Origin: a virus
Length of the DNA stretch: 64,000 bases
Virus record (IMG/VR): IMGVR_UViG_3300012521_000003
Location: 4,659 to 68,658 of that record
Direction: 5' to 3' (one strand)
The notes beneath the pieces were generated by a model. That model had not been told where the DNA came from. It ran no database searches and saw only the letters and a list, made by a program, of their open reading frames with translations. Each line of letters opens with the position of its first letter. The first letter of the stretch is position 1. A program made the position numbers and the translations under genes. This document shows positions 1,775 to 57,195 of the stretch, piece by piece.

Positions 1775-3626
1775 ACTTCAGATAAAAACTGATATCATCG
1801 GTCAGCTAAAGCTGTTCAGATCTAGCACATTCATCGATCCATATGCTTTCATTCAGGAGGCTATACAGAACTCCCAGAGGGCTAAGGCTAGTAAACTACA
1901 AGTTTTAACTGACGTACATTCCGACGGTAGCTATGAGATAACATTCATTGATGATGGAGCTGGTCTCAGTGATCCTGAGGACCTATTCACTCTTACTAAA
2001 ACTGGCTGGGATAATGATACAATCGAGTCTGAGCAACCCTTCGGTATCGGCTTCTTCTCATGCATGGCCATGGCCAATAAAGTAGAGGTCGAGTCTAAGG
2101 GTAAGAAATATTCCTTCGACTACGAGGAGATAATGGCAACTGGTACTCCTTCTGTTAAGGTAGAGGATAGCTCTTTCGAGGACGGGTTCATGGTAACCCT
2201 GAAGAGCTTCGTACCTGACTTCAATATCCATACGTTCATAGTCAGGTTCAAAGAAGCTGCTAAACTTTGTCTCTCACTGAAATGCTCCATTGACGGTGAG
2301 TCCATACTCCCGGTGGACTATCTCAGACCACCAGAGACACTGAAGCATTATCGTAAAGTTCGCTTCGGCACTGTGAATGGCTGGATAGGTCCGAGTAGCT
2401 CTTCCTGGGAGGGTGCCATAAAGATCTACCATCAAGACCGGTTTGTTACCGATCTCCCTTTCCCTGGTATAATAGGGGCTCTCTCAGTAGGCTTAGCTGA
2501 TCTTACACTAAGGGCTCCGGATCGTCGCTCCATCATCGAGGACCAAAAGTACCAGGACTTCAAATCCACATTACGAGAGAGCTTCGTAAAGCCTCTGCTG
2601 ATAAAGATGATACAGGACCCGGAACTAAATGTGTATCAGACTGATATAGCTAATATGTATCTCTCTGTTGATGACTACGCTGATAAGCTGAGATATGTCA
2701 TGATCTCTAGCCTGGACACTGTGGACAGACTCGCTAATCTTGATGAGTATGACCTCCGTCATATGACCAGAGAAGAACTCCTCGATCTTATAGAGTCTAC
2801 CCCAGATCCTCAGGAGATTGAAGAGCCTGTAGATCTTATTGAGAGAACTATAGAGTTTAAACCCAGTAACAGAGCGATTAATACTGGTTCTGTCTATTCA
2901 GCTCCTCTAGCTAGCTCTTACGATAACCCCTATGTTGGTCCAGTTAAAGAGGTTAAGGCCAAGTCAAAGGCCCTGAGAACCCTTAACAATCTGGCTAAAA
3001 AGCGCGTACTATACTATGTGACCCCTAGGGATTTAGCCACTCACCGTAATATCATAGGGGAAGCGTTAAATGCGGGTATTCCCATCGTACTCGCTAGAAC
3101 TGAGCTAGAGAAACGCAGCCTAGAGAGTAAGCTCAGGGCTATAAGAGTCTCTGACGTCACTTACGCCAAGAAGCTGGAGATCCGTGTAACCCCAGATAAG
3201 GCTAGCTTAAAGGCTCGTCGAGTGGGTAGACTGATCGGCTATCTTCTAAAGAAGATGGAGATAGAGAATATAGACATCAAGCTAGGAAACATCGAAGCCC
3301 GTCATAATATCCTACTATCCGGCGACGTTGTAGCTTCCACTCCGACGCGGCTGAGCATAGCTCGGGAGAATAACACCATCTACATTGACACAACTTCGGT
3401 CAACCGTTCAAGAGTTCTGAATATGTCGGATGACCGAGTTGATATAGGTGAGCTCTTCTTCTTAATGGGTCGATTCGATGAATTAAGAGAAGCTCTCACC
3501 GGCCTTATAAAGTGCGACGTATCGGATGTGGACTCCTATATAATAAAGAGTCTCGCTTCCATAGAGGCCAGTTGGATTGTCACCAATCGCATAGCACAAG
3601 AGGAGTCTCCATCCAACGAGCCTTAA
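1767..3626 (+). CDS. GHKL (HSP90/MutL-like) ATPase domain protein, rIIA-like architecture
   Basis: Bergerat-fold motifs EAIQNSQRA, DDGAGL, PFGIGFFS in the N-terminus; long unassigned C-terminus. Confidence 0.8.
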   Translation: MSELQIKTDIIGQLKLFRSSTFIDPYAFIQEAIQNSQRAKASKLQVLTDVHSDGSYEITFIDDGAGLSDPEDLFTLTKTGWDNDTIESEQPFGIGFFSCMAMANKVEVESKGKKYSFDYEEIMATGTPSVKVEDSSFEDGFMVTLKSFVPDFNIHTFIVRFKEAAKLCLSLKCSIDGESILPVDYLRPPETLKHYRKVRFGTVNGWIGPSSSSWEGAIKIYHQDRFVTDLPFPGIIGALSVGLADLTLRAPDRRSIIEDQKYQDFKSTLRESFVKPLLIKMIQDPELNVYQTDIANMYLSVDDYADKLRYVMISSLDTVDRLANLDEYDLRHMTREELLDLIESTPDPQEIEEPVDLIERTIEFKPSNRAINTGSVYSAPLASSYDNPYVGPVKEVKAKSKALRTLNNLAKKRVLYYVTPRDLATHRNIIGEALNAGIPIVLARTELEKRSLESKLRAIRVSDVTYAKKLEIRVTPDKASLKARRVGRLIGYLLKKMEIENIDIKLGNIEARHNILLSGDVVASTPTRLSIARENNTIYIDTTSVNRSRVLNMSDDRVDIGELFFLMGRFDELREALTGLIKCDVSDVDSYIIKSLASIEASWIVTNRIAQEESPSNEP

Positions 3627-7106: not shown

Positions 7107-7329
7107 CCTCTATCTCAATTCCTAGTCTTAATTTATCTCGCTTGCTGAGATCGGAGAATGGTAGCTCCCTCCTCTGCCTCCTAGCTAGCTGATATTCTGA
7201 TAAGAAGTCTATGCTCTTGGCTTTATTACTCTTTGTGTTTTTCAGCTCCTGCTCGAGAATTCTATCAGCCTCGAGCTCGAGCGGAGACTTACCTGAAGTC
7301 TGTGTCCTCCGACCGTACTTTTGGCACAA
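7087..7329 (-). CDS. Hypothetical protein
   Basis: 80 aa ORF in an operon-like overlap with its neighbours. Confidence 0.55.
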   Translation of the reverse strand: MCQKYGRRTQTSGKSPLELEADRILEQELKNTKSNKAKSIDFLSEYQLARRQRRELPFSDLSKRDKLRLGIEIEGDKYNE

Positions 7330-7798
7330 CTCCTATCAACCCTTTCTCTCTTAAGTATCTGATTTTATTACGGATAGACTTAAGGGGCTTATTGAGCTCG
7401 ATAGCTATGGATTTCTCCGAGTGACCCTTATTGTATAGCTCAACCACTCTCTGTGTCTCAGCTTGGGTGAATGACACTGTTTTCTTCGGCTGGGTATCCG
7501 TGAGTAGCTTATACAGTTTGACGAGAGCAGCAGATAAAGAATAGGATACGGACTGTTGGGATATTCCCAGTTCTTTAGAGACCTCTTGTTCAGTATAACC
7601 TTCGATTAGGCACCTACGGAGTACATATCTCTGTCTCTCCGTGAACTTTGACCCCCGCTTCTTAAAGAGTAGATCCTCGAGATCTATGACCGCTATCATG
7701 TTGTCCAGATCTTCACCAACATCGCCAGAGGCCATAGCCCCAGGAAGTGCCCTTATAGCTTTTTTTAATCGGGATATGGTCTCACGATCTGGCTTCAT
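7289..7798 (-). CDS. Sigma-70 region 4-like double HTH DNA-binding protein
   Basis: FTERQRYVL...YTEQEVSKELGISQQSVS and a second HTH SEKSIAIELNKPLKSIRNK. Confidence 0.75.
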   Translation of the reverse strand: MKPDRETISRLKKAIRALPGAMASGDVGEDLDNMIAVIDLEDLLFKKRGSKFTERQRYVLRRCLIEGYTEQEVSKELGISQQSVSYSLSAALVKLYKLLTDTQPKKTVSFTQAETQRVVELYNKGHSEKSIAIELNKPLKSIRNKIRYLREKGLIGVVPKVRSEDTDFR

Positions 7799-7799
7799 A

Positions 7800-8609
7800 T
7801 TAGACCTCCGGGAGTGTTATGAATTTACGACTTGCTATGTAATCAGCAAGGTGTGTCAGCTTCTCAAGAGGGGTCTCAGGTATGGGTAGTGTAACATGAC
7901 TCCTTCCCCAAGAGTCTTTATTCCAAGGTCCCATGTGGCTGTCTATAGCGCTGAGTACCTGATCGACGATTTCCTCTTGTTCTGGAGTAAATCCGAGGGT
8001 CCCTTTGAGCTCTTTCTCATAGACCCTTCTCGGCCACAGAGGATGCTCAAAAGCATAGCCATCAAAGTTGAGACCCTGCTTAAAGCTATCATGGAAAGCA
8101 AGGGCTACTCGGAGCATCTGATCTCCCAGCTCCGGAAGTTCAGAAGTAAATAAGGGATTGTCTAGGAGCTCTTCAGCGACCTTCAGGCAGCCCATGGTGT
8201 GTCTTACAAGGCCGCCTGTACCTTGAGCAAACTGGGGATGATTTTTACCTCCAGTAGAAGCAGGTACCCTGTAGAAGTAATCCGGAACTTTTTCGATGAG
8301 TGCTTCTGAAAACTTCCGTAGAGTCGGGTCTGTTACGCCTCTTAGAAGATACTCGAAGATCGACTTGTCATACATACCAGAGTCTGGTTTTACGAGCTCG
8401 GATGGAACAGGAGAAGCGTTACGAATGTGATTACGGAGCTCCGCTTTCCACTCCTCGACAGTCACCTTATAACCGCTCTTGAGTTTGTCTATCAACCAGC
8501 TAGCGGCCTTTACCGGGGTGTCATTATCTATGGAGTAGTCTTCTACAGAAGCTCCCATCACCTTACTGAGGAGAGACTTGAGATAATTTATCTGCGCTGT
8601 ACTTGCCAT
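7800..8609 (-). CDS. HD-domain phosphohydrolase/nuclease
   Basis: PASTGGKNH...GLVRHT...AFHDSFK...SHMG...HLADYIAS. Confidence 0.9.
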   Translation of the reverse strand: MASTAQINYLKSLLSKVMGASVEDYSIDNDTPVKAASWLIDKLKSGYKVTVEEWKAELRNHIRNASPVPSELVKPDSGMYDKSIFEYLLRGVTDPTLRKFSEALIEKVPDYFYRVPASTGGKNHPQFAQGTGGLVRHTMGCLKVAEELLDNPLFTSELPELGDQMLRVALAFHDSFKQGLNFDGYAFEHPLWPRRVYEKELKGTLGFTPEQEEIVDQVLSAIDSHMGPWNKDSWGRSHVTLPIPETPLEKLTHLADYIASRKFITLPEV

Positions 8610-38571: not shown

Positions 38572-41136
38572 TTATCCGAAGCGTCCAACTATACCTGTAG
38601 GGGGATTAGCAAAGTGGACCTGTCCATAGAAGTTGACGTGGTTGTCAAAATCTGTTACAGGATATCTCCACTTCGCATAGCAGTTTCCAATAGTATCGAA
38701 TACAGCATATGGGGCTACATCCCCACCGTAATAGTAGAATTTTACTGGCGACAACTTCATACCATTGTACATTACCTGGAACTCCAGACCATGATCCGAA
38801 CCTGGAGGTGTGCTACTACTACCGGGACTCGGCGGTATATAGATCTGTACTATATTTCCCCTTATGAGATGGGCTTCTATTTCGTTAGGGCCTATAACAG
38901 TCTGGGTAATATATCCAGGTACAGAGGCGTCGCTACCATCTCTACCGTCTCTACCAACAAACTGATAACCCGGAGTCCAAGTATTACCGCCATCAGTACT
39001 ATCTCTTCTGTATATATCACCCGGCTGCATTGTACTATGCCAATTAACATTATCAGAGGAGTACTGATACCTTATTGGGGAGCTAGACTGGCTCCACTGA
39101 ATAACGCCATTAGAGAGATTTATATTACCCTCAAGTGTTATGTCTCCGGTAGTACCATCTATCTTAATCTTTCCTAGGTCAAGCATTGAGCTCTTCCACT
39201 TACCATTAGCTAGGAGGGAGTTTCCAAACTCATCCTGGAAATCTGTGGCTCTAACTATTCCAGCGAAGACTCCATCAGTAGCATTAACAGTTCCAGTAAA
39301 GGAGCCACTGGAGGCTTCAACATGACCCTTGAAATAAGCATTGCCGTTCATGGTTACACCGAAGACTAGGGAGTCTCCAGTATAGTTGCCGGAACTATCG
39401 AAGTCACCATTCCAAAGAGCGAAGCCATAAGCATTACCTGGCATGTCATCGCTGGCTTTCATGGTAGCCTTAAATCTCTTGTCAGCTGACTGAACTACTA
39501 TACCCTCTGTGTTGTTCAGTCGAACACCACAAGAATTAGGCTCGATTACGATACCATCCGAGCCTACACTGAGTACATGTATTGAATTAGCCAGAACCTT
39601 CTCAGCTAGTACACCCTCACCAGTTATAGCATTCTCGTAGGTGACCCCAAAGTTTGTACTTACTCCTAGTCCATTAGGGGTTAGTCTGACCTGGTTACCA
39701 GTAGGTTTGCCCTCAGCATCAAGGGCTATGGCAGTAAGCTGCCCATCCTTCCATACGAGATCGCCACGTCCAGAGTTTATGGTCGTGGTGAAAGTGCTTA
39801 TATAACCCTTTAGAAGTTCTGAGACAGCCGGATTTTCTGAGAGCTTCTTATTATACTCTATCGAACTGGTTATTGCTTCAGCGAATAGCTCATCCTTATT
39901 AGAGAGCTCACATGAACTCTTTTCGGGGAATCCAGGATAGATATTCGTAGAGAGTACTCTGACTTTTATATCAACCCCGAGCTCTAGATCTCTGACATAG
40001 ACCCAGTCACCAATATCGAAGGTCTCATCAGCATCTTCGACTAGGAGATCGGAGAGTCTCACATAATCAACTGAATAGGAGACCTCAGGCTTAGACATCT
40101 TAGCTAGCTGCTTCCGACCCTCTATCAATAGCTGGTCTGCGTCAACGAAGTCATCGAGTTTAAGGTGGCCTATCCTTATGAACTTACTGGCATCCCCATT
40201 GGCCATTATATCTTCATAGATCTCAGTCTCCGTATATCCCTGTTCAAGGAAGAAAGAGAAATCGGTTATAAAGCTCTGACCATTCTGAAGCTGGTCAAGC
40301 GGGCTCTCATCTGGACCATGGATATTGACTTCGTTAACTGTCAGGTCCTCATCGCCATATAGATAGAGCTTAGTGATAAAGTCGGTAGAGTCGGCAGACT
40401 TTCTTATACCTGTTAAGTTCTTACCATACTCTATTGTCGCTCCTGTATCCCGCCCGGGCTCTTTTACAAAGTCGACCTTCCGGTCACGAGGTCTATATAC
40501 TATATGGCAGTCAAATTTCTCTGCCATTTCCTGAAGTAGCGAGGGGACAGACATCCACTCTCCTGAGAATGTCCTAGCTGCTCCATCGTCATCTACTACA
40601 CCAGGAGTCCATCCAGTATTCTCAAGTGCAAAGCTCATCATCTCTCGGGCGGAGAGTACTAGTTCCGCAAGCTCACTCTGAATATTACAAGTTGTCCAGA
40701 AATTCCACTGGCTACCAGATAGAGAACTACCAGAGGTATGACCAATGACACATTCGTAGACTACTCCGTAGTGCTTTATTCTATCTCCTCTATTATACCG
40801 ATGTAAAGCTTCCCAGTTAGAATATTGCTCTGCTCCTATGTAAGTACCTACAACCTGTCTGGGTTTGTAGTTAAGCTCAATCGCTATAGAAGGAGCCGTA
40901 ACAGAGATAATGCGAGATCCTCCGGAGTCTCTGGTCGGACTAGTGTTCTTGACTATAAAGGGCTCTCCGCAGAACTCTAGTATAACTTCATTCTGGAGAA
41001 GAACCCTGTTTTTATCGGTCGCGGGAACCGTAAATGTCATCTCGGGCCATGAGTCTAATCGACTAGAGATGCAGAGGTCTCTATACTTGGTTATAGTGCC
41101 TATAGGCCTACCAAGCAAGTCGAAAACCTGGATCAT
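38572..41136 (-). CDS. Tail-associated hub protein (Tal / prophage endopeptidase tail family)
   Basis: IEYGKNLTGIRKSADSTDFITKLY, P.VSY.VD; inserted chitin-binding-like WEALHRYNRGDRIKHYGVVYEC. Confidence 0.8.
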   Translation of the reverse strand: MIQVFDLLGRPIGTITKYRDLCISSRLDSWPEMTFTVPATDKNRVLLQNEVILEFCGEPFIVKNTSPTRDSGGSRIISVTAPSIAIELNYKPRQVVGTYIGAEQYSNWEALHRYNRGDRIKHYGVVYECVIGHTSGSSLSGSQWNFWTTCNIQSELAELVLSAREMMSFALENTGWTPGVVDDDGAARTFSGEWMSVPSLLQEMAEKFDCHIVYRPRDRKVDFVKEPGRDTGATIEYGKNLTGIRKSADSTDFITKLYLYGDEDLTVNEVNIHGPDESPLDQLQNGQSFITDFSFFLEQGYTETEIYEDIMANGDASKFIRIGHLKLDDFVDADQLLIEGRKQLAKMSKPEVSYSVDYVRLSDLLVEDADETFDIGDWVYVRDLELGVDIKVRVLSTNIYPGFPEKSSCELSNKDELFAEAITSSIEYNKKLSENPAVSELLKGYISTFTTTINSGRGDLVWKDGQLTAIALDAEGKPTGNQVRLTPNGLGVSTNFGVTYENAITGEGVLAEKVLANSIHVLSVGSDGIVIEPNSCGVRLNNTEGIVVQSADKRFKATMKASDDMPGNAYGFALWNGDFDSSGNYTGDSLVFGVTMNGNAYFKGHVEASSGSFTGTVNATDGVFAGIVRATDFQDEFGNSLLANGKWKSSMLDLGKIKIDGTTGDITLEGNINLSNGVIQWSQSSSPIRYQYSSDNVNWHSTMQPGDIYRRDSTDGGNTWTPGYQFVGRDGRDGSDASVPGYITQTVIGPNEIEAHLIRGNIVQIYIPPSPGSSSTPPGSDHGLEFQVMYNGMKLSPVKFYYYGGDVAPYAVFDTIGNCYAKWRYPVTDFDNHVNFYGQVHFANPPTGIVGRFG

Positions 41137-42868: not shown

Positions 42869-45800
42869 TTAGCGGTTACGTGGTTTTGGGTTTGTTATTC
42901 CTCTACGGCTTAGCTGAGATCTAATATACCTACCAGCCACAGACTCGAGAGTGTCTACGTCAAAGTCACTCGAGAAGACCGCATTCTCTATGTTCATTAC
43001 CTTGTCGATTGTTACACTATTATCGACGTTGGTGCTTGAGGCTGAGGACTTGGTATATAGCGGGGCCACCCTCAAACGGAGTAGATCTCTCATGTCTATA
43101 CTCTTGAGTAGATTAGCCATCTGATCTCTAGGTACCATATATTCGCCTTCGAGAGCCTTTACTAAGGCCTCTTTGGGCCCAAGACCTAGGAGTCTAGAGA
43201 GCTCATTAGGTAGAGTGTTCTTACCAACCACGCCACCTGAGTGATATGTGGGTATACGAGCACCTGACTGTATAAACTCCCAGAATGTTCTCTGGAAATC
43301 TGAGGTCGGGGCATAGTCGAGACCCATCGAGTTGATCTTTGCATTGCGCTGACGCTCCAGCTGCTGGAGCCTTGAGTAGGTCTCCTGAGCTACAGAATAC
43401 TGACCGGACTTTATCTGGCTCTCGAGGGAGGACATCAGCGGTAGCATTAGAGCCATGTAGTCCGTATCTGGGTTAAAGTTTGTGCCGGAGGGTTTGGTCG
43501 AACCGTCGTTACCGAAAAGATTTCCGGGAGTCTGTTTGCTATAATCATCGGAGGGGGATATAGAGGGTGATAGGAGGTTCAATCCAGCATAGTAAGCTGC
43601 ATTCGCAGCCTCAGCAGCCTCTCTATACTTGCTGAGTAGAGACTCAGATGTTAAGTAAGCTAGAACATCGTTCTGGCCGGACATGTATCTATCTACGAGA
43701 CCCTGAGCGAAGTACTCAGCATTATCTAGGAGAATCTTATAGTGCTTATTGATCGCCCTCTCCTCGGCCTCCCAGTCCTTCATCTTCTCGTCATACTCTT
43801 TTTCTAGAGCCTCACGCTCTTCCTCAATCTGATCTCTAATAGCGTCTCTAGCCATCTGACGTTTTTTATCGTCATACTGCTTCTGGAGGTTATTGAGTTC
43901 ATCCTGAGCTTCTTTAAGGAGCTTTCTACCATACTGGCTTGTATCCCCTGCGAGTCTGCGAATACGGATCTGAACTAGTGCCATCTCCTGCTCTAGATCA
44001 GCTAGCTCTCTTTGGTCGTCTTCAGCTTTCCAAGAATCCTCTAAGTGCTTCAGGTACTCTTCGAGGTACTTTATCTTTTCATCATGTAGCTTCTGATATT
44101 CATCTCTGAGGTCTGAGATGTTCTCTAGCTCCTTCTCAAGGCCCTTATTATAAGCATCCGTGAGATAGGTAGAGAATACCTGTACAAGGGCTATTCTGGC
44201 ATCTTCAGCGGAACTCTCAAGCTCAACTAGCTTGTTCTGCAGCTCCTCGATGTATTTTCTTAGGCTGTTGATCCTACCTTCAGCAGAGTTTCTCTCAAAA
44301 GCAGAGGTAGCATTCTTAGCAGCGAGGCTCATAGACTTGAGTTCTTCAGAGGCTCTGTCTATCTCTCTAGATACGGTAGCCATCTGGTCCTCATAGTTTC
44401 TAAGCTGAGTATTGAGTCTGAGGGTAGCTATGGTTAGCTCCTGCTCGTTGTGGATGAAGCCCCTGAGCTTAGTAGTCATTAGGTCTATTTTATTAATAGC
44501 TCTAGATAAGCTACTCTCTAGCTCCGTTAGGCTATCCGTGTAGTAGCTCCGCATCAGCTGGCTTCTTACGTTATAGGCCTCGTATAGCGCCTGAGTATAA
44601 GACTCAATCTTGTCGGTTACTTCGTCATACTTGTCTTCCTCAGTACTTATCTTGCTTCGGAGTTCGACTAGCTGATTTATAGAGTCTACATACTGGTCTA
44701 TCAGCTGCTCCTGTAGCTTAAGTGCTCTAGAAAGATAGGTAGGGTTAGTTAGGTCCTCAGACCATATAGCCTGGAGTATAGAGATGTTATTGGTTATGCG
44801 CTTGATGGCATTCTCCAGTTTGTTCATGGCCTCATCAAGCCACTTCCATTTAGCATCGTCGCCTACGAGTTCTCCGACTCTCGTGGCTAGGGAAACTTCA
44901 GACCCGGGCTCAGGTAGGTTATCTAATACCTGCCTCCAAGAAGCCTGATTTCCACCGAAGGTCTTAAGGATCTGCTGCAGGAATGTTGCAAAAGCAGACG
45001 CCTCATTGTAGTGTTTTGTGTCACCCTCAGCTCTCAGTATTCTCATTAGGTCAAGAGTATCATTGAGCATCTGTCTGGTTTGCTCCACTGCCGTATTAGC
45101 TATTTGTAGCTGGGCTTTTGCGTAGTCATAGGCATACTTGCTTCTCTGAGTGAGATGGGTGCTGAGAGTATTTGTAATGGTGTCTATATTGTTATAGATC
45201 TGTACCTCAGACATAGCACCGAGTAGCTGTCCTGAGATCTCGAGATCACCGAAGAGGAGCTTTAGCTGGTATGCACCCTCTCGGACGGAACGCTCAGTAG
45301 CATAAGTGGCGTCTTTTATCTGCGATATGGCCTGGGCAGCCATTTCTAATTGCTCTTCGAGAGGTATAGCATCCTTATCTCTAAGACCTATATAGCCTAT
45401 GATGTCAGCTTCTCCTATTTCCTCGATCTTAGCCTTGAGCTCTGGGAAGGTCTCGGAGAATAAAGCATAGCCGTCTATCAGTTCAAATAAGCCTGAACCG
45501 AGATCCCCGAACTTAGATACGACGGTCTTAGAGTACTCCTGGAGTCTCATTATATTATAATCAAGGGAGGTTAGGACATAGTCATTAGAGTCGACTAGGG
45601 AGTTATTGATAGCATAGATTATGTCTAAGAAGTTATTAAGTATCTCGTCTCGTGTCAGCTCAGAGATTGTCTTTTTAGCCCCCTCGATCTCTATTGTCTT
45701 GGAGCCAAAGTAATCTTTAAGCTCCTTGACCGCGTCAGTGGCATCAGCGGGAGTACCTGCTCCGAGGATCTTTTCTATTATATCTCTGGCTATACCCTCA

Positions 45801-48800
45801 TAGGTGGGTATACCAAAGTCTATATCCTCGAGAAGTATGGAGGATAACTCACTCTCGCCTTCTACAATCTTGGTCCTGAGCTCAGCGATCACTGTTTTTA
45901 ACTGGCTTGATTCTGACTCTATCTCGGTGATCTGGTCACTAATTGCCCTGATAGCTCCTTCATATTCTAGTTTAGCCGCGTCTAGCTCTTCACTTATGCT
46001 CTTAGGTAGAGTACCTTTCTCGTAGGCTTGTATGAAGGTCTCAAAATCAGGGTACTTTTCAAGAATTGGTTTAAGTCTGTTATAAGTGTCAAAATCGAGA
46101 GAAGTTACTTTACCCTCAGATATATTCTTTGCAGCCTTATTGTAATCAGCGACTAGATTATCATAAGTTTCCCTGATTGAGTTAGATAGAGCTTCCTGAT
46201 AGTAGGCGAGGGAAGTCTTCTTTCTAGACAAGACTTCCTCATACTCTTGTAATTTTTCCTCATGTGTAGTAAGTTCATCCTGAACCAAGGCTATCTCTTG
46301 CTCAAGGGTTGAGGATGAGTCAAGCAGGTCAGACCTTACACGCTCTGCAAGAGCCTGAGAGATCTCATGGAGATTGTCTTTTACTTCGCCCTGCAGACCG
46401 AGTTGACGAAGGGTCTTCTGCGAACCATCTCTCAGAGTAACGATTAGGTCTCCATAACCCGCATCTATGAGGCTGCTGTAAGCTTTCTTAAACTGGTCAG
46501 AGTCTGGACTCTTCTTCAGCATTACACTAAGATAGTTTCTAACCTTCTCAGCGATATTGTTGGAGTTCTCCTGCAGATCGGATATAAACCCGGAGATCCT
46601 ACCTGTAGCACTCTTAACAGCATCGACAGATCTGTCTAGTGTAACCTCCAAGGCTTCTTCTGGGTTGCGGTCTAAGAATAGAGAGGCTGCGGCCTGTATC
46701 CGCTGTTCTCTGAGCTGAGCTATTTTCTCGAGATACTTCTGGTTCTCTTCTTCTATTTCAGTATATCTGACATAGAGTTTCCTATAGTCAGACTCGAGAT
46801 GTTTTTTACTGAAAACTGACAATATATTAGTACCAGGGGAACCCGCGCTCTTAAACTCCTCTCTGGTTATACCTGCCTTCTCGAGTAGAGTATCGAAATC
46901 ATCATTTGCAGTATTAGTAGAATAGTCGGAGGGGTAGTCAGCGAGTGCGCGGAGGAGCTTACTTATTATCTGACCCTTAGGACTATTGAGCTCTTCTAGA
47001 TTCTTCTCTAGCTTATCCTGGAGTTCATCTATCTGATAACCCGCTAGGTCATTTATGAAGGAGACATTGGACTCGAGGATCTGCTGTTTGTATCTGAGAT
47101 ACTCCCTGAGAGCCTCTGTGTTCCTTATTATCAAGCCGTTCTCTTGGTCGTAATAGTCAGCTAGCGCTGGAGCCTGATCAGCCATCGCAGCGCCAACCTC
47201 AATTAGTTGGCGATCTATCGCTAGGGTGTCTTCACCGGATTCAGCTAGCTTTTTCCTCTGTTCGGTGAGGGTCTCGTGCTTGTCTATAAGGCTAGAGATT
47301 GTCTTGATCTCTTTCTTGAGCTCCGCATTTGTTACTAGGGCTTGTTCATAGCGCTCTTGGAGCATCTTTTTCTCTCTGGCTGATTCCGTGGCCCATCTAA
47401 TAATTAGTCCTATACCGATGCTTATAGCTGTAGATAGTAGTCCCTGAGCCAAGGTTGCCTTGGCAGCCATAGCGGAAGCTGCCCGATTAGCTGCAGCCTC
47501 TGCCTGCTTAGCAGTTGCCGCCTTGTAGGCAGCGGTAGCGGAAGCGTCAGTAGCTACAGTATTCTGGGTCTTTGAGGCGGTGTTCTCATTAGTGGCTCTG
47601 GTGTTAGTATTCGTAGAACTCGTCTCTACAGTAGTAGCAGTAGCTTCAGCGGTCTGAGCGGCGGTGCTAGCAGCTGTTGCAGCAGTCGCACCAACTTGAG
47701 CAGCTTGATATTCCTCTAGTAGACGGTTATATATTCTCTGCTGAGCATTCAGGTCCCCAAGTCGGGCTAGCTGCTCGTCTATGAGGATGTTCATGGACTC
47801 GTCATAGGACTTACCCGTGGTCTGAGACATGAACTCGGCCATATTCTTAAAGGCATCGCTATTCTTCAACTTCTCAGCCAGGTCAGAGTACTTGGTAAGA
47901 ATACCCCCAAGAGAGTCGGTGAATGAGCTCTCCGCTATGCTCTTCGCGGCATCTTTGAAGGTCTTGTCGGTCTCATGAACAACCTTAACGACCCTTCCCA
48001 TATTAACAATGAAATTGAGAAGTCCCTTAGAGAGACTCGTACCAAAGGCCTGCTGTAGGATCTTATTAACGGTAGCCATTGTAACACCGAACATGGTCCA
48101 GTACGAGATCTGCTCTTGTATTTCGGGGTTAAGGTTAGCGAAGCCATCGAATATCTTTGAGAGGAAATCTACCGTGCCTTTCATGATGTCCGTTAGTCCC
48201 CACTTACCGAAGGCATTAGCTGCCTCTGTAAAGGAGGCCTTTAACCTCTGGGACTTACGCTCTAGAGTGTCCAGAGTCATCTCGAACTTCTTGGCCGAGT
48301 AGCCTGCGCTCTCCATTGAGAGCTGAGCGTAGTTTATAGCAGAGGTTCCTGTGGAACTAAAGCCGGTGGTGTTCCAACTAGAGAGTAGGGCCATGACGTA
48401 GTTCCTTTGCCTACTCTCGCCTAGGGCTCCTATTAACCTATTGAGGTCCTCTGTCATCTCGCCAAAGCCACCAGCCTGTAGCTGTAGCTCCTGATACTTC
48501 TTAGCAACCTCATCTATTATTTCTACATAGGACTTAAACTTTCCGACCGAAGCCGCGGCCGTTTCACCAGTCTCGTAGACATCAATGCCCAGATCCTTAA
48601 ATATCTGGAGGTTCTTATCCTTGTAGATGCTGCTGAACATCATTCTCAAGGCGGTACCAACCTCAGCGCCGCTTCTTCCTGTGTTCTGTATAAGCGTAGC
48701 TATTATAGCATTTAACTCTGTATAGTCCAGACCGACAGCTCTTGCATATCCAGCGGCTTTCTGATAAGCCTCAGCAAAGTCTGAAGTATCTGCCGTGGTA

Positions 48801-51800
48801 GCATCTGCTAGCTTGTTCCAGGAGTCTAGGAGTAGTTGAGCCTGCTCATAAGACATACCCATCTGGACCAAGGCGGAGTTAAGATAGGTTACAGCATTAG
48901 ATGCGTCTTTTATGTCTGAAGTGTTAAGGGCAAGTATGGAGGTCTCAGTAAGGGTCTCTAGGGAGTCAGCATCAACTACGCCCACCTTCGCCCATTCTTC
49001 CTGTACTGTAGCGACATTCTGTATAGTCTCACCATACTCGATCGCTATCTCGTTCAGGTCCTTCAGGGCCTTAAGGGTCTCTGCAGCAGGTACATCCTGC
49101 CAGACTCGTTTCAAGTTAACGACTGCGGTCTCGTAGTCTTTGATGTTTTGGATGGCTTGCTTTATTAATTGTATTGAGCTCATTACTCCAGTGAGTCCGC
49201 CTATGACGCCCCACCCGGTTGTTTTAGCTCCCCACTTGAGTGCAGCCCAATTATCCTCACCTCTAGCGGAACCAAACCAATTGAGCCCAGAGGCTTCCGG
49301 ACCTACGCCAGACTTATCACCTATGATGCGGAAGACACTCGAGAGAAGCCCTCGATTACCTATAGCCTGCTGTATATCGTAGGAAGATCTACCAGACCCT
49401 GAGCCTAGATATGACCGCTCACGAACCAGCCTATTTATTTTTTCCTCGATATCCAGTCGCATCTTCTGAGTCTTAAGATGCTCCTGCATAATGAGGTCTT
49501 CCTTGGTTCTCTCCGCGATCTCCGCCTTGATGGCCGACATGCGACTTGTAGCGGCAGAGATATCAGCCTTATTACGCTGTATGGCCTCGTTAGCTAGTTT
49601 AGCCGACAGCTCGCTCTCGAGAGTTAGGCGCTCTTTGACCAGCTCTAACTCCTCTTTACGAGCCTGTATCGAAGCAGCGGCGGACTCCTGTCTCTTAGCA
49701 GCGAGTTTATTTATCTCCTCTACTTCAGCTTGTAGAAGGGAGATTCGGTTCTTTTCTTCTTCGTCAACGGAGCTTAGGAGAGCCGCTCTTATCATCTCAG
49801 TACCTTTATCAGTACTAGGATATCTAGCATTAATAGCATCGCGCTGAGCCTGAGCAGCCTGCTTAATAGTGTCTAACTGAGCTTTATAATATTGACTTGC
49901 TCTCTCCGCTTCCTTAGCTATATCAGCGGAGGATCTACGATACTCCGATATAGCTCTACCAAGAGCATTTAGTCTAGTCTCTATCTGCTTACTAGACTCG
50001 TCACTAAGGTCATAGTCCCCTTTCATAGACTCCATAGAGAGCTTAGCTGCATGGGCGGCAGATTGAGCGTATTCAGCGACTCGGGCTCTCTGGTCGGCAG
50101 TCAGTGACTCTTCTAGTCTAAGCCTATTGGCTTTTACAGAAGCTATTTTATCCTCTATAGTAGCCTCTTCTCTTGCTGCTTTAGCTCTGGCTTCAGCAGC
50201 CCTAGCAATAGCAGTATCAGCCTCAGCTCGTTTCTTAGTGGAGATCGCTTCAGAGTCCTTTATAGCCTGGAGGGTCTTCTGCGCAGTCTCTTCTGCTCTA
50301 GCAGCCATGAGGGCTTCTTTAGCCTGAGACTCCTTAATCTTCTGGGCCTCTCGAGCTTGCTTTACAATATCAGCCTCTACTCTAGCTGCTTCTTTAAGGT
50401 AAGCTAGTCCAGAGACATTTTCTCGATAGGTCCTAGCATTCTCAATAGCGATTCTCTGAGCCTTTACCTCAGTCAGCTGGTCCTCAGGAGATAGGCTAGC
50501 TAGACTCTGAGCAGTTCTTTCTATATAAGACCTTAAGAGAGCCTCACTATTCGCTATGGCCTCTGTCTTATTAAACCCTAGAGGCTGATCCCCGAGAACC
50601 TCTTTAGCCAGGCTACTAGCTGCCAGGTCACGGAGCTTGTCTCTATACTCTTCGAGAGAGGACTTAACGTTCTGGTCAAGAGGCCTAGGAGTAGGCGACT
50701 TTGCTAAGCGTTCAAGCGTCTGGTCCCTCTGCTGGGTGAGCTTCGCCATCGTGGAGAAACCGGACAGGTCCTCCTTGAGCTTTGCTGCGGGATTCGTTCC
50801 GAGGATCTGATCAGCCTTAGATCCCATAGAGGCTATATTCTCAGACACGCCAACAGTCTCATCCATGACCGCGCTCCAGAACTCATTAAGTGCCCTGGAT
50901 ATCTGGTCTAGCTGCTGGACTGCTTCCTGATTCTTAGCCCCTTTTAGCTCAGCCTTAATCGGATCGAGTAGCTTATTATTAAGTAGGAAGGCTGCAGCGA
51001 GAGCGGGGTCTGCCTTAGCTATCGCGGCACCGAACATCTTATAGTCGGTTTCACCTGGAGCCATCTTATTATAGGCCAATATGCTCTCTAGTGCGTTCTT
51101 CTTATCTGTGATAGATAGAGCAGCACTACCACCGGCTCCTCGTGCCCAATGTAGTAAGCTAAGACCTTCCTTTGTATTACTTGTAGAGCTATAGACGTAC
51201 TCTGGAATACCGAGTTCTCTTAGCAGACTTACGGCGGCATCTCTCGAAGGACCTGCACTAAGGCCAGTGGCTCTCCATAGGGTCTGTAGGAATCTCTCGG
51301 CGGGGTTAAGAGTGGAGAGAGCCTTGAGGTTATAGCTTATCTGATCTGTACCTAGAGGAGACGAATGAGAGTCTATAGGTATAGCGTACATCCCCTCTAG
51401 CTTATAACCGAGATTACGAGCACTATAAGCATCACCGCCTTTTAGTAGAGCGGTGATTACTGCCTGGTCTACATCCTTGTTGGATATAGGGCTATGATGT
51501 CCCTGAGCTGCCTTTATGGCACTATCAAGCATATCCCTAGCCTGACTGCGGACTTCCTCAGGTAGGGCATCGATTATGGCTCTAGAGACCTCTTCTTTCA
51601 GTATCTGGGTTATAACCTCGGGATGGGTATCTCCTCCACCTTGAGCGGTACCAACACCTCCCTTGGATAGACCTAGCTGACCAGCAGCCTTACCTATATC
51701 GTGGAGTATGGCACTGAGCTTGAAGGTCTCCATAGCCTTGGGATCCATAAGGGTCTTTTTCAAAGCACTTACCGGATCCTGTATGCCAGCTTCAACCAAT

Positions 51801-52681
51801 TCTCTATAGGCTAGATCGAGAGCCGAAAACTGTGTTTTCTCATCCCATAGTCCAGTCTTAGTGAATTTAGCTCTCTCGAGCTCATATTTCTTTTTAACTA
51901 GCTGGAGCTGTTTATCGAGTTCCTTCTCGTCAGGTATATCCAGGAACTGAGCTATTATATCAGCCGAATGAACTGCAAGGTCAGACCAGGTGTTATGATA
52001 CTTACCTGAAGTAGAGGCTGGGAATGTAAATATCTTGGAGACAAGATCCTTAGCTGAGAGCTGTTTCATCAGCTCCTGAACCATCTTCTCCCCAATATTT
52101 GTGGACATGGCACCCTTAAACATCGAGGTTACGGCGCCACCATAGTCTAGCTTACTATCCGCGAAGGCCTTGCCACTTATAGTGGGCTTACTACCCTTAG
52201 GAGCAAAGAAGCTATTAATAGCCTCAAGGTTCTTCTGAGCCTTTGCTATATTAGTCTGGAGGTTCTTGAAGACCTTGGTCAACTCTCGGTTGAAGGCCTC
52301 CATTTCCTTACTAATATTGCCAGAGCCCTTACGGTTGCTGATGAACTCACTGAAGACCATTTGGAGGCCCTTCTTCATTTGAGCTATCTGCTCCTTACTG
52401 TACTTAGCTAGAGCCTCGAAATCACCCCTGGAGATAAGGTCTATATCTCTAGGAATATCTCCCTTAAGGGAGTTAAACTGCTTAACGACTTCTAGGAATG
52501 TATTGAGGTTCGGAACGATATAACCAATCTTATCGGCGACCTGGGGCATTACAGCGTTAGCCTTGGCTGTGTTGCTTCCCAGCGCCATGAGGGCCTCGGC
52601 GAACACCTCAATATTCTTGGAAGAGTCGACAAGACTATCAACTATACTCTCAAGTATTGCGTCTCCATTTTCTTTTGCCAT
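42869..52681 (-). CDS. Tape measure protein (3270 aa) with an N-terminal HD domain
   Basis: TP901-type core (YETAVVNLKRV...SAKKFEMTLDTLERKSQRLK), long coiled coils, C-terminal YHSGGVVG; follows the tail chaperone genes. Confidence 0.93.
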   Translation of the reverse strand: MAKENGDAILESIVDSLVDSSKNIEVFAEALMALGSNTAKANAVMPQVADKIGYIVPNLNTFLEVVKQFNSLKGDIPRDIDLISRGDFEALAKYSKEQIAQMKKGLQMVFSEFISNRKGSGNISKEMEAFNRELTKVFKNLQTNIAKAQKNLEAINSFFAPKGSKPTISGKAFADSKLDYGGAVTSMFKGAMSTNIGEKMVQELMKQLSAKDLVSKIFTFPASTSGKYHNTWSDLAVHSADIIAQFLDIPDEKELDKQLQLVKKKYELERAKFTKTGLWDEKTQFSALDLAYRELVEAGIQDPVSALKKTLMDPKAMETFKLSAILHDIGKAAGQLGLSKGGVGTAQGGGDTHPEVITQILKEEVSRAIIDALPEEVRSQARDMLDSAIKAAQGHHSPISNKDVDQAVITALLKGGDAYSARNLGYKLEGMYAIPIDSHSSPLGTDQISYNLKALSTLNPAERFLQTLWRATGLSAGPSRDAAVSLLRELGIPEYVYSSTSNTKEGLSLLHWARGAGGSAALSITDKKNALESILAYNKMAPGETDYKMFGAAIAKADPALAAAFLLNNKLLDPIKAELKGAKNQEAVQQLDQISRALNEFWSAVMDETVGVSENIASMGSKADQILGTNPAAKLKEDLSGFSTMAKLTQQRDQTLERLAKSPTPRPLDQNVKSSLEEYRDKLRDLAASSLAKEVLGDQPLGFNKTEAIANSEALLRSYIERTAQSLASLSPEDQLTEVKAQRIAIENARTYRENVSGLAYLKEAARVEADIVKQAREAQKIKESQAKEALMAARAEETAQKTLQAIKDSEAISTKKRAEADTAIARAAEARAKAAREEATIEDKIASVKANRLRLEESLTADQRARVAEYAQSAAHAAKLSMESMKGDYDLSDESSKQIETRLNALGRAISEYRRSSADIAKEAERASQYYKAQLDTIKQAAQAQRDAINARYPSTDKGTEMIRAALLSSVDEEEKNRISLLQAEVEEINKLAAKRQESAAASIQARKEELELVKERLTLESELSAKLANEAIQRNKADISAATSRMSAIKAEIAERTKEDLIMQEHLKTQKMRLDIEEKINRLVRERSYLGSGSGRSSYDIQQAIGNRGLLSSVFRIIGDKSGVGPEASGLNWFGSARGEDNWAALKWGAKTTGWGVIGGLTGVMSSIQLIKQAIQNIKDYETAVVNLKRVWQDVPAAETLKALKDLNEIAIEYGETIQNVATVQEEWAKVGVVDADSLETLTETSILALNTSDIKDASNAVTYLNSALVQMGMSYEQAQLLLDSWNKLADATTADTSDFAEAYQKAAGYARAVGLDYTELNAIIATLIQNTGRSGAEVGTALRMMFSSIYKDKNLQIFKDLGIDVYETGETAAASVGKFKSYVEIIDEVAKKYQELQLQAGGFGEMTEDLNRLIGALGESRQRNYVMALLSSWNTTGFSSTGTSAINYAQLSMESAGYSAKKFEMTLDTLERKSQRLKASFTEAANAFGKWGLTDIMKGTVDFLSKIFDGFANLNPEIQEQISYWTMFGVTMATVNKILQQAFGTSLSKGLLNFIVNMGRVVKVVHETDKTFKDAAKSIAESSFTDSLGGILTKYSDLAEKLKNSDAFKNMAEFMSQTTGKSYDESMNILIDEQLARLGDLNAQQRIYNRLLEEYQAAQVGATAATAASTAAQTAEATATTVETSSTNTNTRATNENTASKTQNTVATDASATAAYKAATAKQAEAAANRAASAMAAKATLAQGLLSTAISIGIGLIIRWATESAREKKMLQERYEQALVTNAELKKEIKTISSLIDKHETLTEQRKKLAESGEDTLAIDRQLIEVGAAMADQAPALADYYDQENGLIIRNTEALREYLRYKQQILESNVSFINDLAGYQIDELQDKLEKNLEELNSPKGQIISKLLRALADYPSDYSTNTANDDFDTLLEKAGITREEFKSAGSPGTNILSVFSKKHLESDYRKLYVRYTEIEEENQKYLEKIAQLREQRIQAAASLFLDRNPEEALEVTLDRSVDAVKSATGRISGFISDLQENSNNIAEKVRNYLSVMLKKSPDSDQFKKAYSSLIDAGYGDLIVTLRDGSQKTLRQLGLQGEVKDNLHEISQALAERVRSDLLDSSSTLEQEIALVQDELTTHEEKLQEYEEVLSRKKTSLAYYQEALSNSIRETYDNLVADYNKAAKNISEGKVTSLDFDTYNRLKPILEKYPDFETFIQAYEKGTLPKSISEELDAAKLEYEGAIRAISDQITEIESESSQLKTVIAELRTKIVEGESELSSILLEDIDFGIPTYEGIARDIIEKILGAGTPADATDAVKELKDYFGSKTIEIEGAKKTISELTRDEILNNFLDIIYAINNSLVDSNDYVLTSLDYNIMRLQEYSKTVVSKFGDLGSGLFELIDGYALFSETFPELKAKIEEIGEADIIGYIGLRDKDAIPLEEQLEMAAQAISQIKDATYATERSVREGAYQLKLLFGDLEISGQLLGAMSEVQIYNNIDTITNTLSTHLTQRSKYAYDYAKAQLQIANTAVEQTRQMLNDTLDLMRILRAEGDTKHYNEASAFATFLQQILKTFGGNQASWRQVLDNLPEPGSEVSLATRVGELVGDDAKWKWLDEAMNKLENAIKRITNNISILQAIWSEDLTNPTYLSRALKLQEQLIDQYVDSINQLVELRSKISTEEDKYDEVTDKIESYTQALYEAYNVRSQLMRSYYTDSLTELESSLSRAINKIDLMTTKLRGFIHNEQELTIATLRLNTQLRNYEDQMATVSREIDRASEELKSMSLAAKNATSAFERNSAEGRINSLRKYIEELQNKLVELESSAEDARIALVQVFSTYLTDAYNKGLEKELENISDLRDEYQKLHDEKIKYLEEYLKHLEDSWKAEDDQRELADLEQEMALVQIRIRRLAGDTSQYGRKLLKEAQDELNNLQKQYDDKKRQMARDAIRDQIEEEREALEKEYDEKMKDWEAEERAINKHYKILLDNAEYFAQGLVDRYMSGQNDVLAYLTSESLLSKYREAAEAANAAYYAGLNLLSPSISPSDDYSKQTPGNLFGNDGSTKPSGTNFNPDTDYMALMLPLMSSLESQIKSGQYSVAQETYSRLQQLERQRNAKINSMGLDYAPTSDFQRTFWEFIQSGARIPTYHSGGVVGKNTLPNELSRLLGLGPKEALVKALEGEYMVPRDQMANLLKSIDMRDLLRLRVAPLYTKSSASSTNVDNSVTIDKVMNIENAVFSSDFDVDTLESVAGRYIRSQLSRRGITNPKPRNR

Positions 52682-52774: not shown

Positions 52775-53068
52775 CTATTCTCTACGAACGAATTCTCTCA
52801 TTGCTTCTTCAAATGCGTCGAATGATAGGTCAGTGTCTTTAGTCTTTACAGCCCCGCGCTCTTGACGTACTATCCTAGTATCGGGAGCAAGCGGATGGAA
52901 TTCCTGCTTAAGCTCATTACCTGCGGGTAGAGCTGCAAGATGTACTTCCCAATTAATCTTACGGCTCAGTTGATATATAAGCTCAGAGAATTGGACCATA
53001 CTTAATTCGCCGATCTCTGAGGGTAATTTATTGAGCCATACCGCCAGGATATAGATCCCATCTTCCAT
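52775..53068 (-). CDS. Tail assembly chaperone, frameshift extension (gpT-like)
   Basis: In the -1 frame of the upstream ORF; lies just before the TMP gene. Confidence 0.75.
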   Translation of the reverse strand: MEDGIYILAVWLNKLPSEIGELSMVQFSELIYQLSRKINWEVHLAALPAGNELKQEFHPLAPDTRIVRQERGAVKTKDTDLSFDAFEEAMREFVRRE

Positions 53069-53451
53069 TAAGAGAGCGGGGTCTGAGCGTTTTTTTGGTT
53101 ACCTGTAAGCTTAGCTAGCTTGCTGTGGAGCCTCTCCATGTCAATGTCGTTCTGCTCCATCAGTGTAGCCCTCAGTTCTCTGTATTCATCATTCGTGATA
53201 GAATCTATGAGTTCTACTAGATCGGTCCTCTCTGACTCTTCGGATCTGGCAGCTATTAGGGCCAGTGTACGTAGACTATCGATACCCTGTAAATACGCAA
53301 TATCGGCCAGGGACTCAAAGTCTAGAATGTAGATTACCTTTGAGGCCTCTGGCCAGTCTTTTATTCTTATAGGATATATATCTACTACCGCATTTCCTAT
53401 CCGAAGTGCCCTCGGCCTGGCCAGAGAGTTTTCAAGTGATTTCTCTGCCAT
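53068..53451 (-). CDS. Tail assembly chaperone (gpG-like)
   Basis: Between the tail tube and TMP genes; slippery site near its 3' end. Confidence 0.75.
   Translation of the reverse strand: MAEKSLENSLARPRALRIGNAVVDIYPIRIKDWPEASKVIYILDFESLADIAYLQGIDSLRTLALIAARSEESERTDLVELIDSITNDEYRELRATLMEQNDIDMERLHSKLAKLTGNQKNAQTPLS
53089..53095 (-). promoter_or_regulatory. Programmed -1 frameshift site A AAA AAC
   Basis: In-frame CAA AAA AAC; the -1 frame reads KRSDPALL directly into MEDG of 52775..53068. Confidence 0.8.
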
Positions 53452-56223: not shown

Positions 56224-57195
56224 TTAATCGCCGTCAGTCTCGCCAGTCCCGTCAGGCTCGTTGTCAATCGCCATCTGGTTAACCAGTACGTTGTCGAGGA
56301 GACCGCAAGCGTCAGCTTCCTCGATTGCGAAGTCAACCTTGACTGTAACAACGATAATGATCTGGCGGGCCGAGATATCCTTATCAGTCTCGATCTGGAC
56401 CTTGCGGGTAAAGCCAGCGATAAGGTTCTTCGGGTGGGTGAGCAGAGCCTTCGTGAGGTTGTCGTCGGATACCGGCACCATTGCGCAGGGCTGAATCTCA
56501 TAGCCGAGAGCCGTAGCATTGGTGTTCTGGAGTAGGAAGCGGTCACCAGCAACAGTGTTGCGAGAAGCGATAGCTTCTTTCCAGTCGAGGTCAAGAGCAT
56601 GAGAGGTGTAAATTCTCCAGTCAGCCGGGTTCCTGCGGTACTTGGGCGGGACAGCACCGATGAGGCGTCTCCAAGCATTCGTATTAATCGGGGAGCCGTT
56701 GGCATCGACGACATGCTGGTTGGCCTTCTTGAGGATACCATCTACAAGCTTGAGGTACGGGTCAGAAGAGGTGGTGTCGCCGTTCAGCATAAGCTCTTCG
56801 AGGTCGAGAGCTACACGCTCCTGAATCATAGACATAATCGTATTCTTCAGCTGACCTCTCTCAATGTTGTTCTCAAGAGTGTCATAAGAGATACGAACTT
56901 CGGCTATGACTTCCTTTGTGGTGAGCTCAACCTTGCCGAAGGAGGGCTTTGCATACTGGTCAGAGGTCAGGGCTACGTTCTCTACCGCGGGTCTCAGGAT
57001 ACGGGATCCAAAGCCGATTTTCTCAATCTTCTTGGACTCGCCATCGATGAGAACTGTGCGGCAGGCTCTCAGAAGTGTGGGCTGGTCGATAACGCCGCGC
57101 AGGAACTTCTCCGACTGCATGGGATTAAGATAACCCCCGGACTGAAGGTCAGCAGAAGCAAGTGCGCCTTTTACCAAGGTTTCAGTATTCTCCAT
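56224..57195 (-). CDS. Major capsid protein (HK97 fold)
   Basis: GGYLNPMQSEKFL, KIEKIGFGSRIL, ALDLEELMLNGD, LLTHPKNLI. Confidence 0.92.
   Translation of the reverse strand: MENTETLVKGALASADLQSGGYLNPMQSEKFLRGVIDQPTLLRACRTVLIDGESKKIEKIGFGSRILRPAVENVALTSDQYAKPSFGKVELTTKEVIAEVRISYDTLENNIERGQLKNTIMSMIQERVALDLEELMLNGDTTSSDPYLKLVDGILKKANQHVVDANGSPINTNAWRRLIGAVPPKYRRNPADWRIYTSHALDLDWKEAIASRNTVAGDRFLLQNTNATALGYEIQPCAMVPVSDDNLTKALLTHPKNLIAGFTRKVQIETDKDISARQIIIVVTVKVDFAIEEADACGLLDNVLVNQMAIDNEPDGTGETDGD

Follow-up and report, generated by a model that had tools for sequence, protein, structure and literature searches.

Can the tape measure protein (TMP) of a long-tailed phage carry an enzyme of the nucleic-acid or nucleotide type, and what would such an enzyme do there? 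The question is raised by a stretch of 64,000 nucleotides (hereafter the window), covering positions 4,659 to 68,658 of the 72,643 bp viral record IMGVR_UViG_3300012521_000003 from IMG/VR, in which a first-pass annotation had reported HD phosphohydrolase motifs inside a TMP. The presence of an HD domain within this TMP (P0001) is confirmed here. The domain covers residues 205-435 (51377-52069, minus strand), and the interval given earlier (51410-52030) corresponds to residues 218-424. The explanation that best accounts for the data as a whole, to which we assign a probability of roughly 0.55, is that of a folded, catalytically competent two-metal HD domain similar to that of YhaM, which would act in the infected cell at genome entry.

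All the motifs quoted for the TMP are found within residues 221-422, and the HD codons lie at 51698-51703 as claimed. On the minus strand, the domain displays successively the pre-motif PASTSGKYH, which includes H229 (residues 221-229, 51995-52021), then H238 in LAVHS (51968-51970), the first metal ligand, which matches H163 of YhaM and is invariant in alignments with free-standing HD proteins. A helical insertion of about 80 residues (240-322, 51716-51964) separates this first histidine from the dyad H327-D328, which together with K331 (51689-51703, K331 being encoded at 51689-51691) belongs to the motif ILHDIGK (residues 325-331). These are followed by H353 in THPE (51623-51625), invariant in the alignment of TMP and free-standing domains and with a third TMP lineage, by the doublet H395-H396 in GHH (51494-51499), invariant in all TMP lineages and matching H250-H251 of YhaM, and by D417 in GGDAYSAR (51431-51433), also invariant and matching D274 of YhaM. 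The H...HD...H...D set of metal ligands, described as full in the first-pass annotation, is indeed complete and conserved. P0001 contains 22 histidines in 3270 residues, and six of them are located inside the 231-residue domain where 1.55 would be expected (hypergeometric P = 0.003). All six occupy proposed ligand positions, and the sole HH dipeptide of the protein as well as one of its just two HD dipeptides are found in the domain. This clustering of histidines at ligand positions suggests that the motif set is more than a product of chance.

The ligands are also retained in the orthologous TMPs. When 1.84 billion cluster representatives were searched exhaustively with HMMER, two matches were obtained, of which P0004 is genuine: this TMP of 3406 residues has the matching region at the equivalent position (residues 201-433). 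The other match, a SecA/DnaJ repeat protein of 4149 residues (P0003), was discarded as spurious because it harbors none of the ligands. A word-indexed search with P0004 added P0005, which is 78% identical to it. A third TMP lineage (3533 residues) is present on a 90-kb Logan contig (SRR15237815), for which a partial sequence was used (P0019, read from about residue 254 onward). The same TMP architecture is thus found on independent assemblies, in orthologues of 3406 and 3533 residues. Over their first 700 residues, P0001 and P0004 are 23% identical and all ligands are kept; P0019 is 25% identical to the TMP of the window and keeps VHDLVK, DH, THH and LLDGISA. The two orthologous lineages read at full length have H238, H327-D328, K331, H353, H395-H396 and D417 unchanged, and from H327 onward the same holds for the third, partial one, with only 23-30% identity among lineages. 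The HD regions of P0004 and P0005 contain exactly six histidines each, at aligned positions. Conservation of the metal ligands among homologous TMPs, on which the initial proposal depended, therefore extends across three lineages.

The evidence for an HD fold is weak when the sequence of the window is taken alone, and becomes much clearer when its relatives are included. The Pfam HD family (PF01966, gathering threshold 22 bits) is passed by the orthologous domains of P0004 and P0005 (26.5 and 23.9 bits, respectively), and the domain of the window scores 16.4 bits against Cas3_HD. For structure prediction with AlphaFold2 (AF2), a second alignment was built with MAFFT from the TMP domains and 28 diverse free-standing HD proteins obtained from the protein search and from IMG/VR. 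Its invariant columns are A222, G226, H229, H238, H327, D328, K331, H353 and D417 (in a smaller version of this alignment H395 is invariant in place of H353), and it yielded a model with a predicted local distance difference test (pLDDT) of 82.2 and a predicted template modelling score (pTM) of 0.81. Comparison of this model with about 48,000 representative PDB chains by VIA-align 2 gave YhaM as best match (9h3f_A, Z 9.6, root-mean-square deviation 4.2 Å over 134 residues, 18% identity). The remaining top 50 matches belong almost all to the HD superfamily, including HD-GYP, PPX/GppA, the HD domains of Cas10 and Cas3, PhnZ, TmpB, SAMHD1, MIOX, PgpH and phosphodiesterases. The region thus models as an HD fold, as the first-pass annotation had anticipated, both in the AF2 model and in its structural neighbours. 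The insertion 240-322 is predicted as long helices with pLDDT 85-96 despite almost no alignment depth; it is missing from the free-standing HD family and shorter in P0004 and P0005, and in this model it may form a coiled-coil arm linking the HD domain to the helical bundle of the TMP.

Several of the results weigh against the reading of a folded, active domain. The domain of the window reaches 18.2 bits against Pfam HD, below the threshold of 22, and the three TMP sequences alone did not suffice for AF2, whose model was unusable (pLDDT 47). The alignment behind the confident model is dominated by the free-standing HD family, so that the fold is partly inherited from the alignment. A Z score of 9.6 is modest for an all-helical domain, values under about 13 being indecisive for helical domains. 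Foldseek searches of PDB, AFDB clusters, Swiss-Prot models and BFVD retrieved nothing significant, HD proteins being enriched only among rows of higher probability. A feature search of the ESM Atlas placed an HD cluster fourth at 0.90, a weak recognition under the reliable level, and sequence searches of the PDB with the single domain and with a three-sequence profile gave no relevant match. Considering the model, the structural matches and the conservation of the ligands together, residues ~205-435 very likely adopt a true HD fold.

Within the HD superfamily, the nearest relatives are YhaM and Cbf1 (3'-5' exonucleases of B. subtilis and S. aureus, respectively; PDB 9h3f, 9o7t), members of a group of HD nucleases with Mn2+-dependent activity on ssDNA and RNA, which provide the top match of the TMP domain both by structure (Z 9.6) and by sequence profile. 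A profile of the free-standing family matches S. aureus Cbf1 and B. subtilis YhaM at E 2.6e-5, and once the TMP rows are added to it, the HD domain of YhaM/Cbf1 is matched at E 4.5e-10. YhaM is a 3'-deoxyribonuclease acting on single-stranded DNA, whose hexameric ring assembles around DNA and in which cryo-electron microscopy revealed two Mg2+ held by H163, H193, D194, H250, H251 and D274 (PMC12107432). In the TMP, H238, H327, D328, H395, H396 and D417 correspond one-to-one with these published ligands (PMC12107432), with a similar spacing after the dyad (67 and 22 residues compared with 57 and 24 in YhaM). Both domains have the same two-metal set H..HD..HH..D and resemble each other in the (I/V)LHD(I/L)GK setting of the dyad and in a PA-x-x-x-x-H pre-motif, PASTSGKYH aligning with a 'PAA..HH' stretch of YhaM/Cbf1. 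The H-H doublet is common to the TMP domain and YhaM, whereas the free-standing phage family has H-M. The TMP domain differs from YhaM by its insertion of ~80 residues between the first histidine and the HD dyad, and by being part of a virion protein of 3270 residues whereas YhaM is a soluble hexamer of 35 kDa. Unlike YhaM, P0001 showed no match to an OB (oligonucleotide/oligosaccharide-binding) fold within residues 1-700, nor to any other family that binds nucleic acids; residues 1-200 look helical. The YhaM equivalog model of NCBIfam (NF010007, cut-off 460 bits) has no match in the TMP domain nor elsewhere in the phage genome, the free-standing HD gene scoring 17.3 bits. The TMP domain probably belongs to the YhaM-like branch of the superfamily.

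The pattern H..HD..H..HH..D marks two-metal HD phosphodiesterases such as YhaM, RNase Y, YqeK, PgpH, HD-GYP and Cas3 and, to our knowledge, is not a mark of single-metal deoxynucleoside triphosphatases or of 5'-nucleotidases. The substrate is thus more likely to be a phosphodiester (nucleic acid, dinucleotide or cyclic nucleotide) than a deoxynucleoside tri- or monophosphate. The ligand set also indicates that the domain is probably catalytically competent, with two metal ions.

A free-standing HD gene is present in the same genome (P0002, 269 residues, 7800-8609, minus strand), and all the motifs quoted for it (PASTGGKNH, LVRHT, FHDSFK, SHM and LADY) were found. It belongs to phrog_5889 (E 5.8e-40), whose members include SPO1 gp32.6 and proteins of SP8, SP82G and CP-51, the HD protein of Clostridium phage c-st and those of some haloviruses. 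Around 350 copies of this family occur in IMG/VR, and in the 45 known phage records with a match it is always free-standing and never under a TMP annotation. The first-pass annotation had considered the TMP domain as related to this gene. This holds insofar as both belong to the same YhaM-like branch, have nine invariant columns and the PAS-x-x-GK-x-H pre-motif in common (A222, G226 and H229 being invariant across the TMP domains and the 28 free-standing proteins), and occur in the same genomes, but their identity is only 15-19% and the similarity is limited to motif columns (PAS-x-x-GK-x-H, H, HD-x-x-K, HP, H, D-x-x-(A/S)-(S/A)-(R/x)). The free-standing proteins differ further by H-M at the fifth ligand position and by having no insertion. 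BLASTP of P0001 against P0002 aligns only nine residues of the pre-motif, hhalign of the TMP domain against the free-standing family gives 50% probability over 35 columns, and phrog_5889 matches the TMP domain (E 5e-5) over only about 60 residues around the pre-motif rather than over its full length. With a hidden Markov model of the free-standing family, P0001 scores 14.6 bits versus a best of 6.8 among 300 shuffled sequences, and P0004 and P0005 score no better than shuffles.

The TMP domain had also been proposed to derive from a duplication of the free-standing gene. In the phage of P0005, too, a free-standing copy (49% identical to P0002) is located between the Thy1 and sigma-factor region-4 genes, as in the window, and both forms occur together in all three phage lineages, suggesting that fused and free-standing HD domains predate the split of these lineages. 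A recent duplication can be rejected on account of this coexistence and of the high divergence between the two forms, and the proposal is possible only for an ancient event: if one derives from the other, in either direction, it did so anciently. The base composition also shows no sign of a recent horizontal insertion of the HD domain, which was rejected, the GC content of the region showing nothing anomalous. The TMP domain also ties the abundant and uncharacterised phrog_5889 family, including SPO1 gp32.6, to the recently solved nuclease YhaM.

Some additional features of the free-standing gene were observed. Residues 1-80 of P0002 form an extra N-terminal domain with a conserved DTPxKAASWLIDxLK, present in members of 263-280 residues and not in those of 192-204 residues. 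The N-terminal 80 residues of the family profile gave a weak match (E 0.012) with the PDB chain 'Acb2 homolog 43', which was not reproduced with the single sequence and was discarded. Directly downstream of P0002 lies a gene of the sigma-70 region 4/LuxR type (7289-7798, minus strand, PF08281, 41.7 bits), an adjacency kept in both sister phages, and P0002 also adjoins thyX, near a cluster of pyrimidine-modification genes. SPO1, SP8, SP82G and CampHawk, which harbor the phrog_5889 gene, are hydroxymethyluracil phages, and a role of this family in excluding canonical pyrimidine nucleotides is conceivable.

P0001 itself is a bona fide TMP. It is encoded by a single unbroken open reading frame (ORF) (42869-52681, minus strand, 3270 residues) and scores 99.4 bits against TIGR01760 (tape_meas_TP901, curated cut-off 28.8); PF10145 is also on record for it, and the TMP families phrog_4211 and phrog_28 match later parts of the protein (E 1e-33 and 1e-17, respectively). 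The conserved TMP core (TIGR01760/PF10145) lies at residues ~1204-1532 (48086-49072, minus strand) and starts about 770 residues past the HD domain, which is included, as a fixed module, in an N-terminal extension of ~1130 residues ahead of the core. The length of this extension looks unusual. Among known phages, the closest TMP cores are those of SPbeta-like Staphylococcus, Mammaliicoccus and Lysinibacillus phages (~25% identity), some of which are annotated with lysostaphin-type domains; no Pfam family of lysozyme, transglycosylase or peptidase was found anywhere in P0001. A sole hydrophobic, transmembrane-like segment is present at residues 1742-1762 (47396-47458, minus strand; Kyte-Doolittle value above 1.5 in a 19-residue window). 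P0004 and P0005 carry a C-terminal LysM domain (residues ~3216-3265) that is absent from the C-terminus of the window TMP (42869-43900), in keeping with a contact between the cell wall and the C-terminal end of the protein. The gene order on the minus strand is capsid (56224-57195), small ORFs (52775-53451), TMP, two ORFs of ~250 residues and a tail-associated lysin (Tal, 38572-41136, Pfam Prophage_tail, 128.6 bits). At the orthologous locus, a YomU_Tube gene is located upstream of the TMP.

How such a domain could act is suggested by the arrangement of phage tails. In siphophage tails of known structure, the TMP has its C-terminus in the tip. For lambda, this applies to the C-terminal helix of gpH, and the tube accommodates the end of the DNA as well (PMC10721106); the N-terminal HD domain of P0001 would thus be head-proximal, beside the leading end of the DNA. 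It would then be the last part of the TMP to come out of the tail, just before the DNA. The C-terminal half could engage the membrane through the hydrophobic segment 1742-1762, and the soluble N-terminal 1130 residues would follow. Three folded 25-kDa domains in register would be too large for the narrow lumen of the tube, so that the HD domain is probably stored unfolded or extended and would refold after ejection, as the enzymes of other TMPs are assumed to do. In its refolded, metal-loaded state it could cleave a phosphodiester in the host ahead of phage gene expression. Its substrate may be the 3' end of single-stranded nucleic acid, which is what YhaM attacks, or else a nucleotide second messenger. 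Given that YhaM, the closest solved relative, is a 3'-exonuclease, nucleic-acid 3' ends appear at least as likely as cyclic nucleotides.

The same geometry also speaks against this delivery: three folded domains side by side would be expected to exceed the width of the lumen, and in the virion they would have to be unfolded, staggered, outside the tube, or cleaved off at maturation. TMPs are generally taken as trimers, and the ~3 copies expected per virion would be a small dose for destroying diffusible signals. The more specific proposal that the TMP is a vehicle for an effector directed to the cytoplasm, which would enter ready-made with the first DNA and destroy immune nucleotides (those of CBASS, type III CRISPR, Thoeris or Pycsar, or alarmones) or attack host nucleic-acid 3' ends before phage transcription, is a tentative suggestion and rather unlikely. 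If true, it would represent an enzyme for counter-defence or host takeover carried in the virion, a type that has not been described in the TMPs of siphophages.

Other explanations have to be weighed against a delivered, YhaM-like phosphodiesterase. A chance coincidence of motifs in a helical TMP segment devoid of any HD fold would account for the sub-threshold Pfam score of the window, the failure of AF2 with a shallow alignment and the null result of Foldseek. It is largely refuted by the invariance of the ligands in three lineages, the identity of all six histidines of the domain with ligands, the orthologues that pass the Pfam cut-off, the profile match to YhaM at 4.5e-10 and a structural top 50 made nearly entirely of the HD superfamily, and is extremely improbable. 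The domain could alternatively serve as a pilot for the DNA end, the HD domains holding, trimming or protecting the leading 3' end of the phage genome, for instance against host exonucleases, or ringing the DNA like YhaM hexamers. The few copies per virion would suit a single-molecule substrate, and this possibility also agrees with the head-proximal N-terminus and the presence of the DNA end in the same tube (PMC10721106), and with a nearest relative that is a 3'-exonuclease forming a ring around single- and double-stranded DNA (PMC12107432). On the other side, neither an OB fold nor any other domain for binding nucleic acids was detected next to the HD domain, and we consider such a pilot function unlikely.

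A role confined to the producing cell or to assembly has a comparably low probability. The domain would be in this case a late soluble phosphohydrolase of the unassembled TMP, a head-proximal plug or dock for a chaperone, or a pro-region that is cleaved off, proteolytic processing of TMPs being known in some phages. Such a role would agree with a folded HD trimer that should be too large for the tube lumen, and the free-standing paralogue in the nucleotide-metabolism module suggests that the infected cell is a place where this chemistry is needed. Strict conservation of the ligands at 23-30% identity would however not be required for a purely structural role, and a second, tethered copy for the same job is less likely when a soluble paralogue is already available for intracellular work. 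Finally, enzymes embedded in TMPs are normally envelope-degrading, and the HD domain could cleave the teichoic acids of a Gram-positive host to aid penetration, as the peptidoglycan hydrolase domains of other TMPs do, a spore-former being a likely host because one sister phage has a gene for a small acid-soluble spore protein (SASP) and the orthologous TMPs carry LysM. We know of no teichoicase with an HD domain, the closest relatives are cytoplasmic enzymes of nucleic acids or nucleotides, and the domain is located opposite the tip, in the part of the TMP that would be the last to exit the tail, all of which makes an envelope phosphodiesterase very unlikely. The reading of a two-metal phosphodiesterase delivered at genome entry is the one favoured here.

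The distribution of this architecture appears to be narrow. No match to the TMP HD domain was found by tblastn in 50,697 phage records (INPHARED), and in a word-indexed search of 5.8 billion protein clusters the TMP region found only itself and P0004 found only P0004 and P0005. With patterns from the TMP-domain alignment, no further HD-bearing TMP could be confirmed in GTDB genomes, JGI metagenome contigs or IMG/VR. The three lineages share a gene order for replication and nucleotide metabolism (DnaB, primase, Pol A, dUTPase_2, a thymidylate-synthase fold, Thy1, dCMP deaminase, RuvC, RecA, HD, sigma factor, RNase H and ligase), and the position of the free-standing HD gene is syntenic in two related phages. 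The sister phage on the 90-kb Logan contig harbors the SASP gene (L084:16161-16541), suggesting that the hosts are likely endospore-forming Bacillota. The HD-bearing TMP is thus conserved in a small clade of siphophages of 72-92 kb, known only from metagenomes and probably infecting spore-forming Bacillota. In the third lineage, the TMP is still followed by the two genes of ~250 residues and Tal, and the distal tail genes differ (a Gp80-like protein and proteins of 1537 and 1008 residues), suggesting that the receptor-binding module was exchanged and the HD-bearing TMP retained. In the phage of P0005 (ENA ERZ28575252 scaffold_131), an RVT_1 reverse transcriptase of 210 residues (L085:14923-15555) lies ~1.5 kb downstream of a tail-region protein of 1014 residues with Big_3/DUF6273 domains, and could be part of a diversity-generating retroelement.

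TMPs are known for enzymes that degrade the cell wall and not for enzymes of the nucleic-acid or nucleotide families. In the literature, no HD or phosphohydrolase domain in a TMP was found to be described, but only coincidental co-mentions of the terms, 'HD' having another meaning in the case of the lambda tail. The location of a conserved HD domain with a complete ligand set next to the DNA suggests that a siphophage genome can enter the host together with a preformed phosphodiesterase or nuclease, which would broaden the notion of 'ejection proteins' in long-tailed phages of Gram-positive bacteria. The HD-bearing TMP is a candidate for counter-defence prior to expression or for the handling of DNA ends, and raises the structural question of how a 25-kDa helical enzyme is stored inside a tail tube.

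Peptidoglycan hydrolases borne by TMPs are well established, for example the metallopeptidase of T5 pb2, the Rpf and peptidase motifs of mycobacteriophage TMPs and the transglycosylase or M23 domains of SPbeta-type TMPs. P0001 resembles these proteins in having a catalytic domain within a tail-length ruler that is expelled at infection; it differs from them in that theirs cut peptidoglycan, whereas its own domain is a putative phosphoesterase of a nucleic-acid/nucleotide family located at the N-terminal, head-proximal end. As far as its description goes, Sle1 of Streptomyces offers another parallel, with a TMP-like scaffold carrying exchangeable domains ejected from a tail-like tube; it belongs however to an intracellular contractile injection system of actinobacteria, and its functional domain is described as C-terminal (PMC13277306). 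The theme of an enzyme within a TMP is thus a known one, and what is new is the HD class of enzyme within it, found so far in three lineages.

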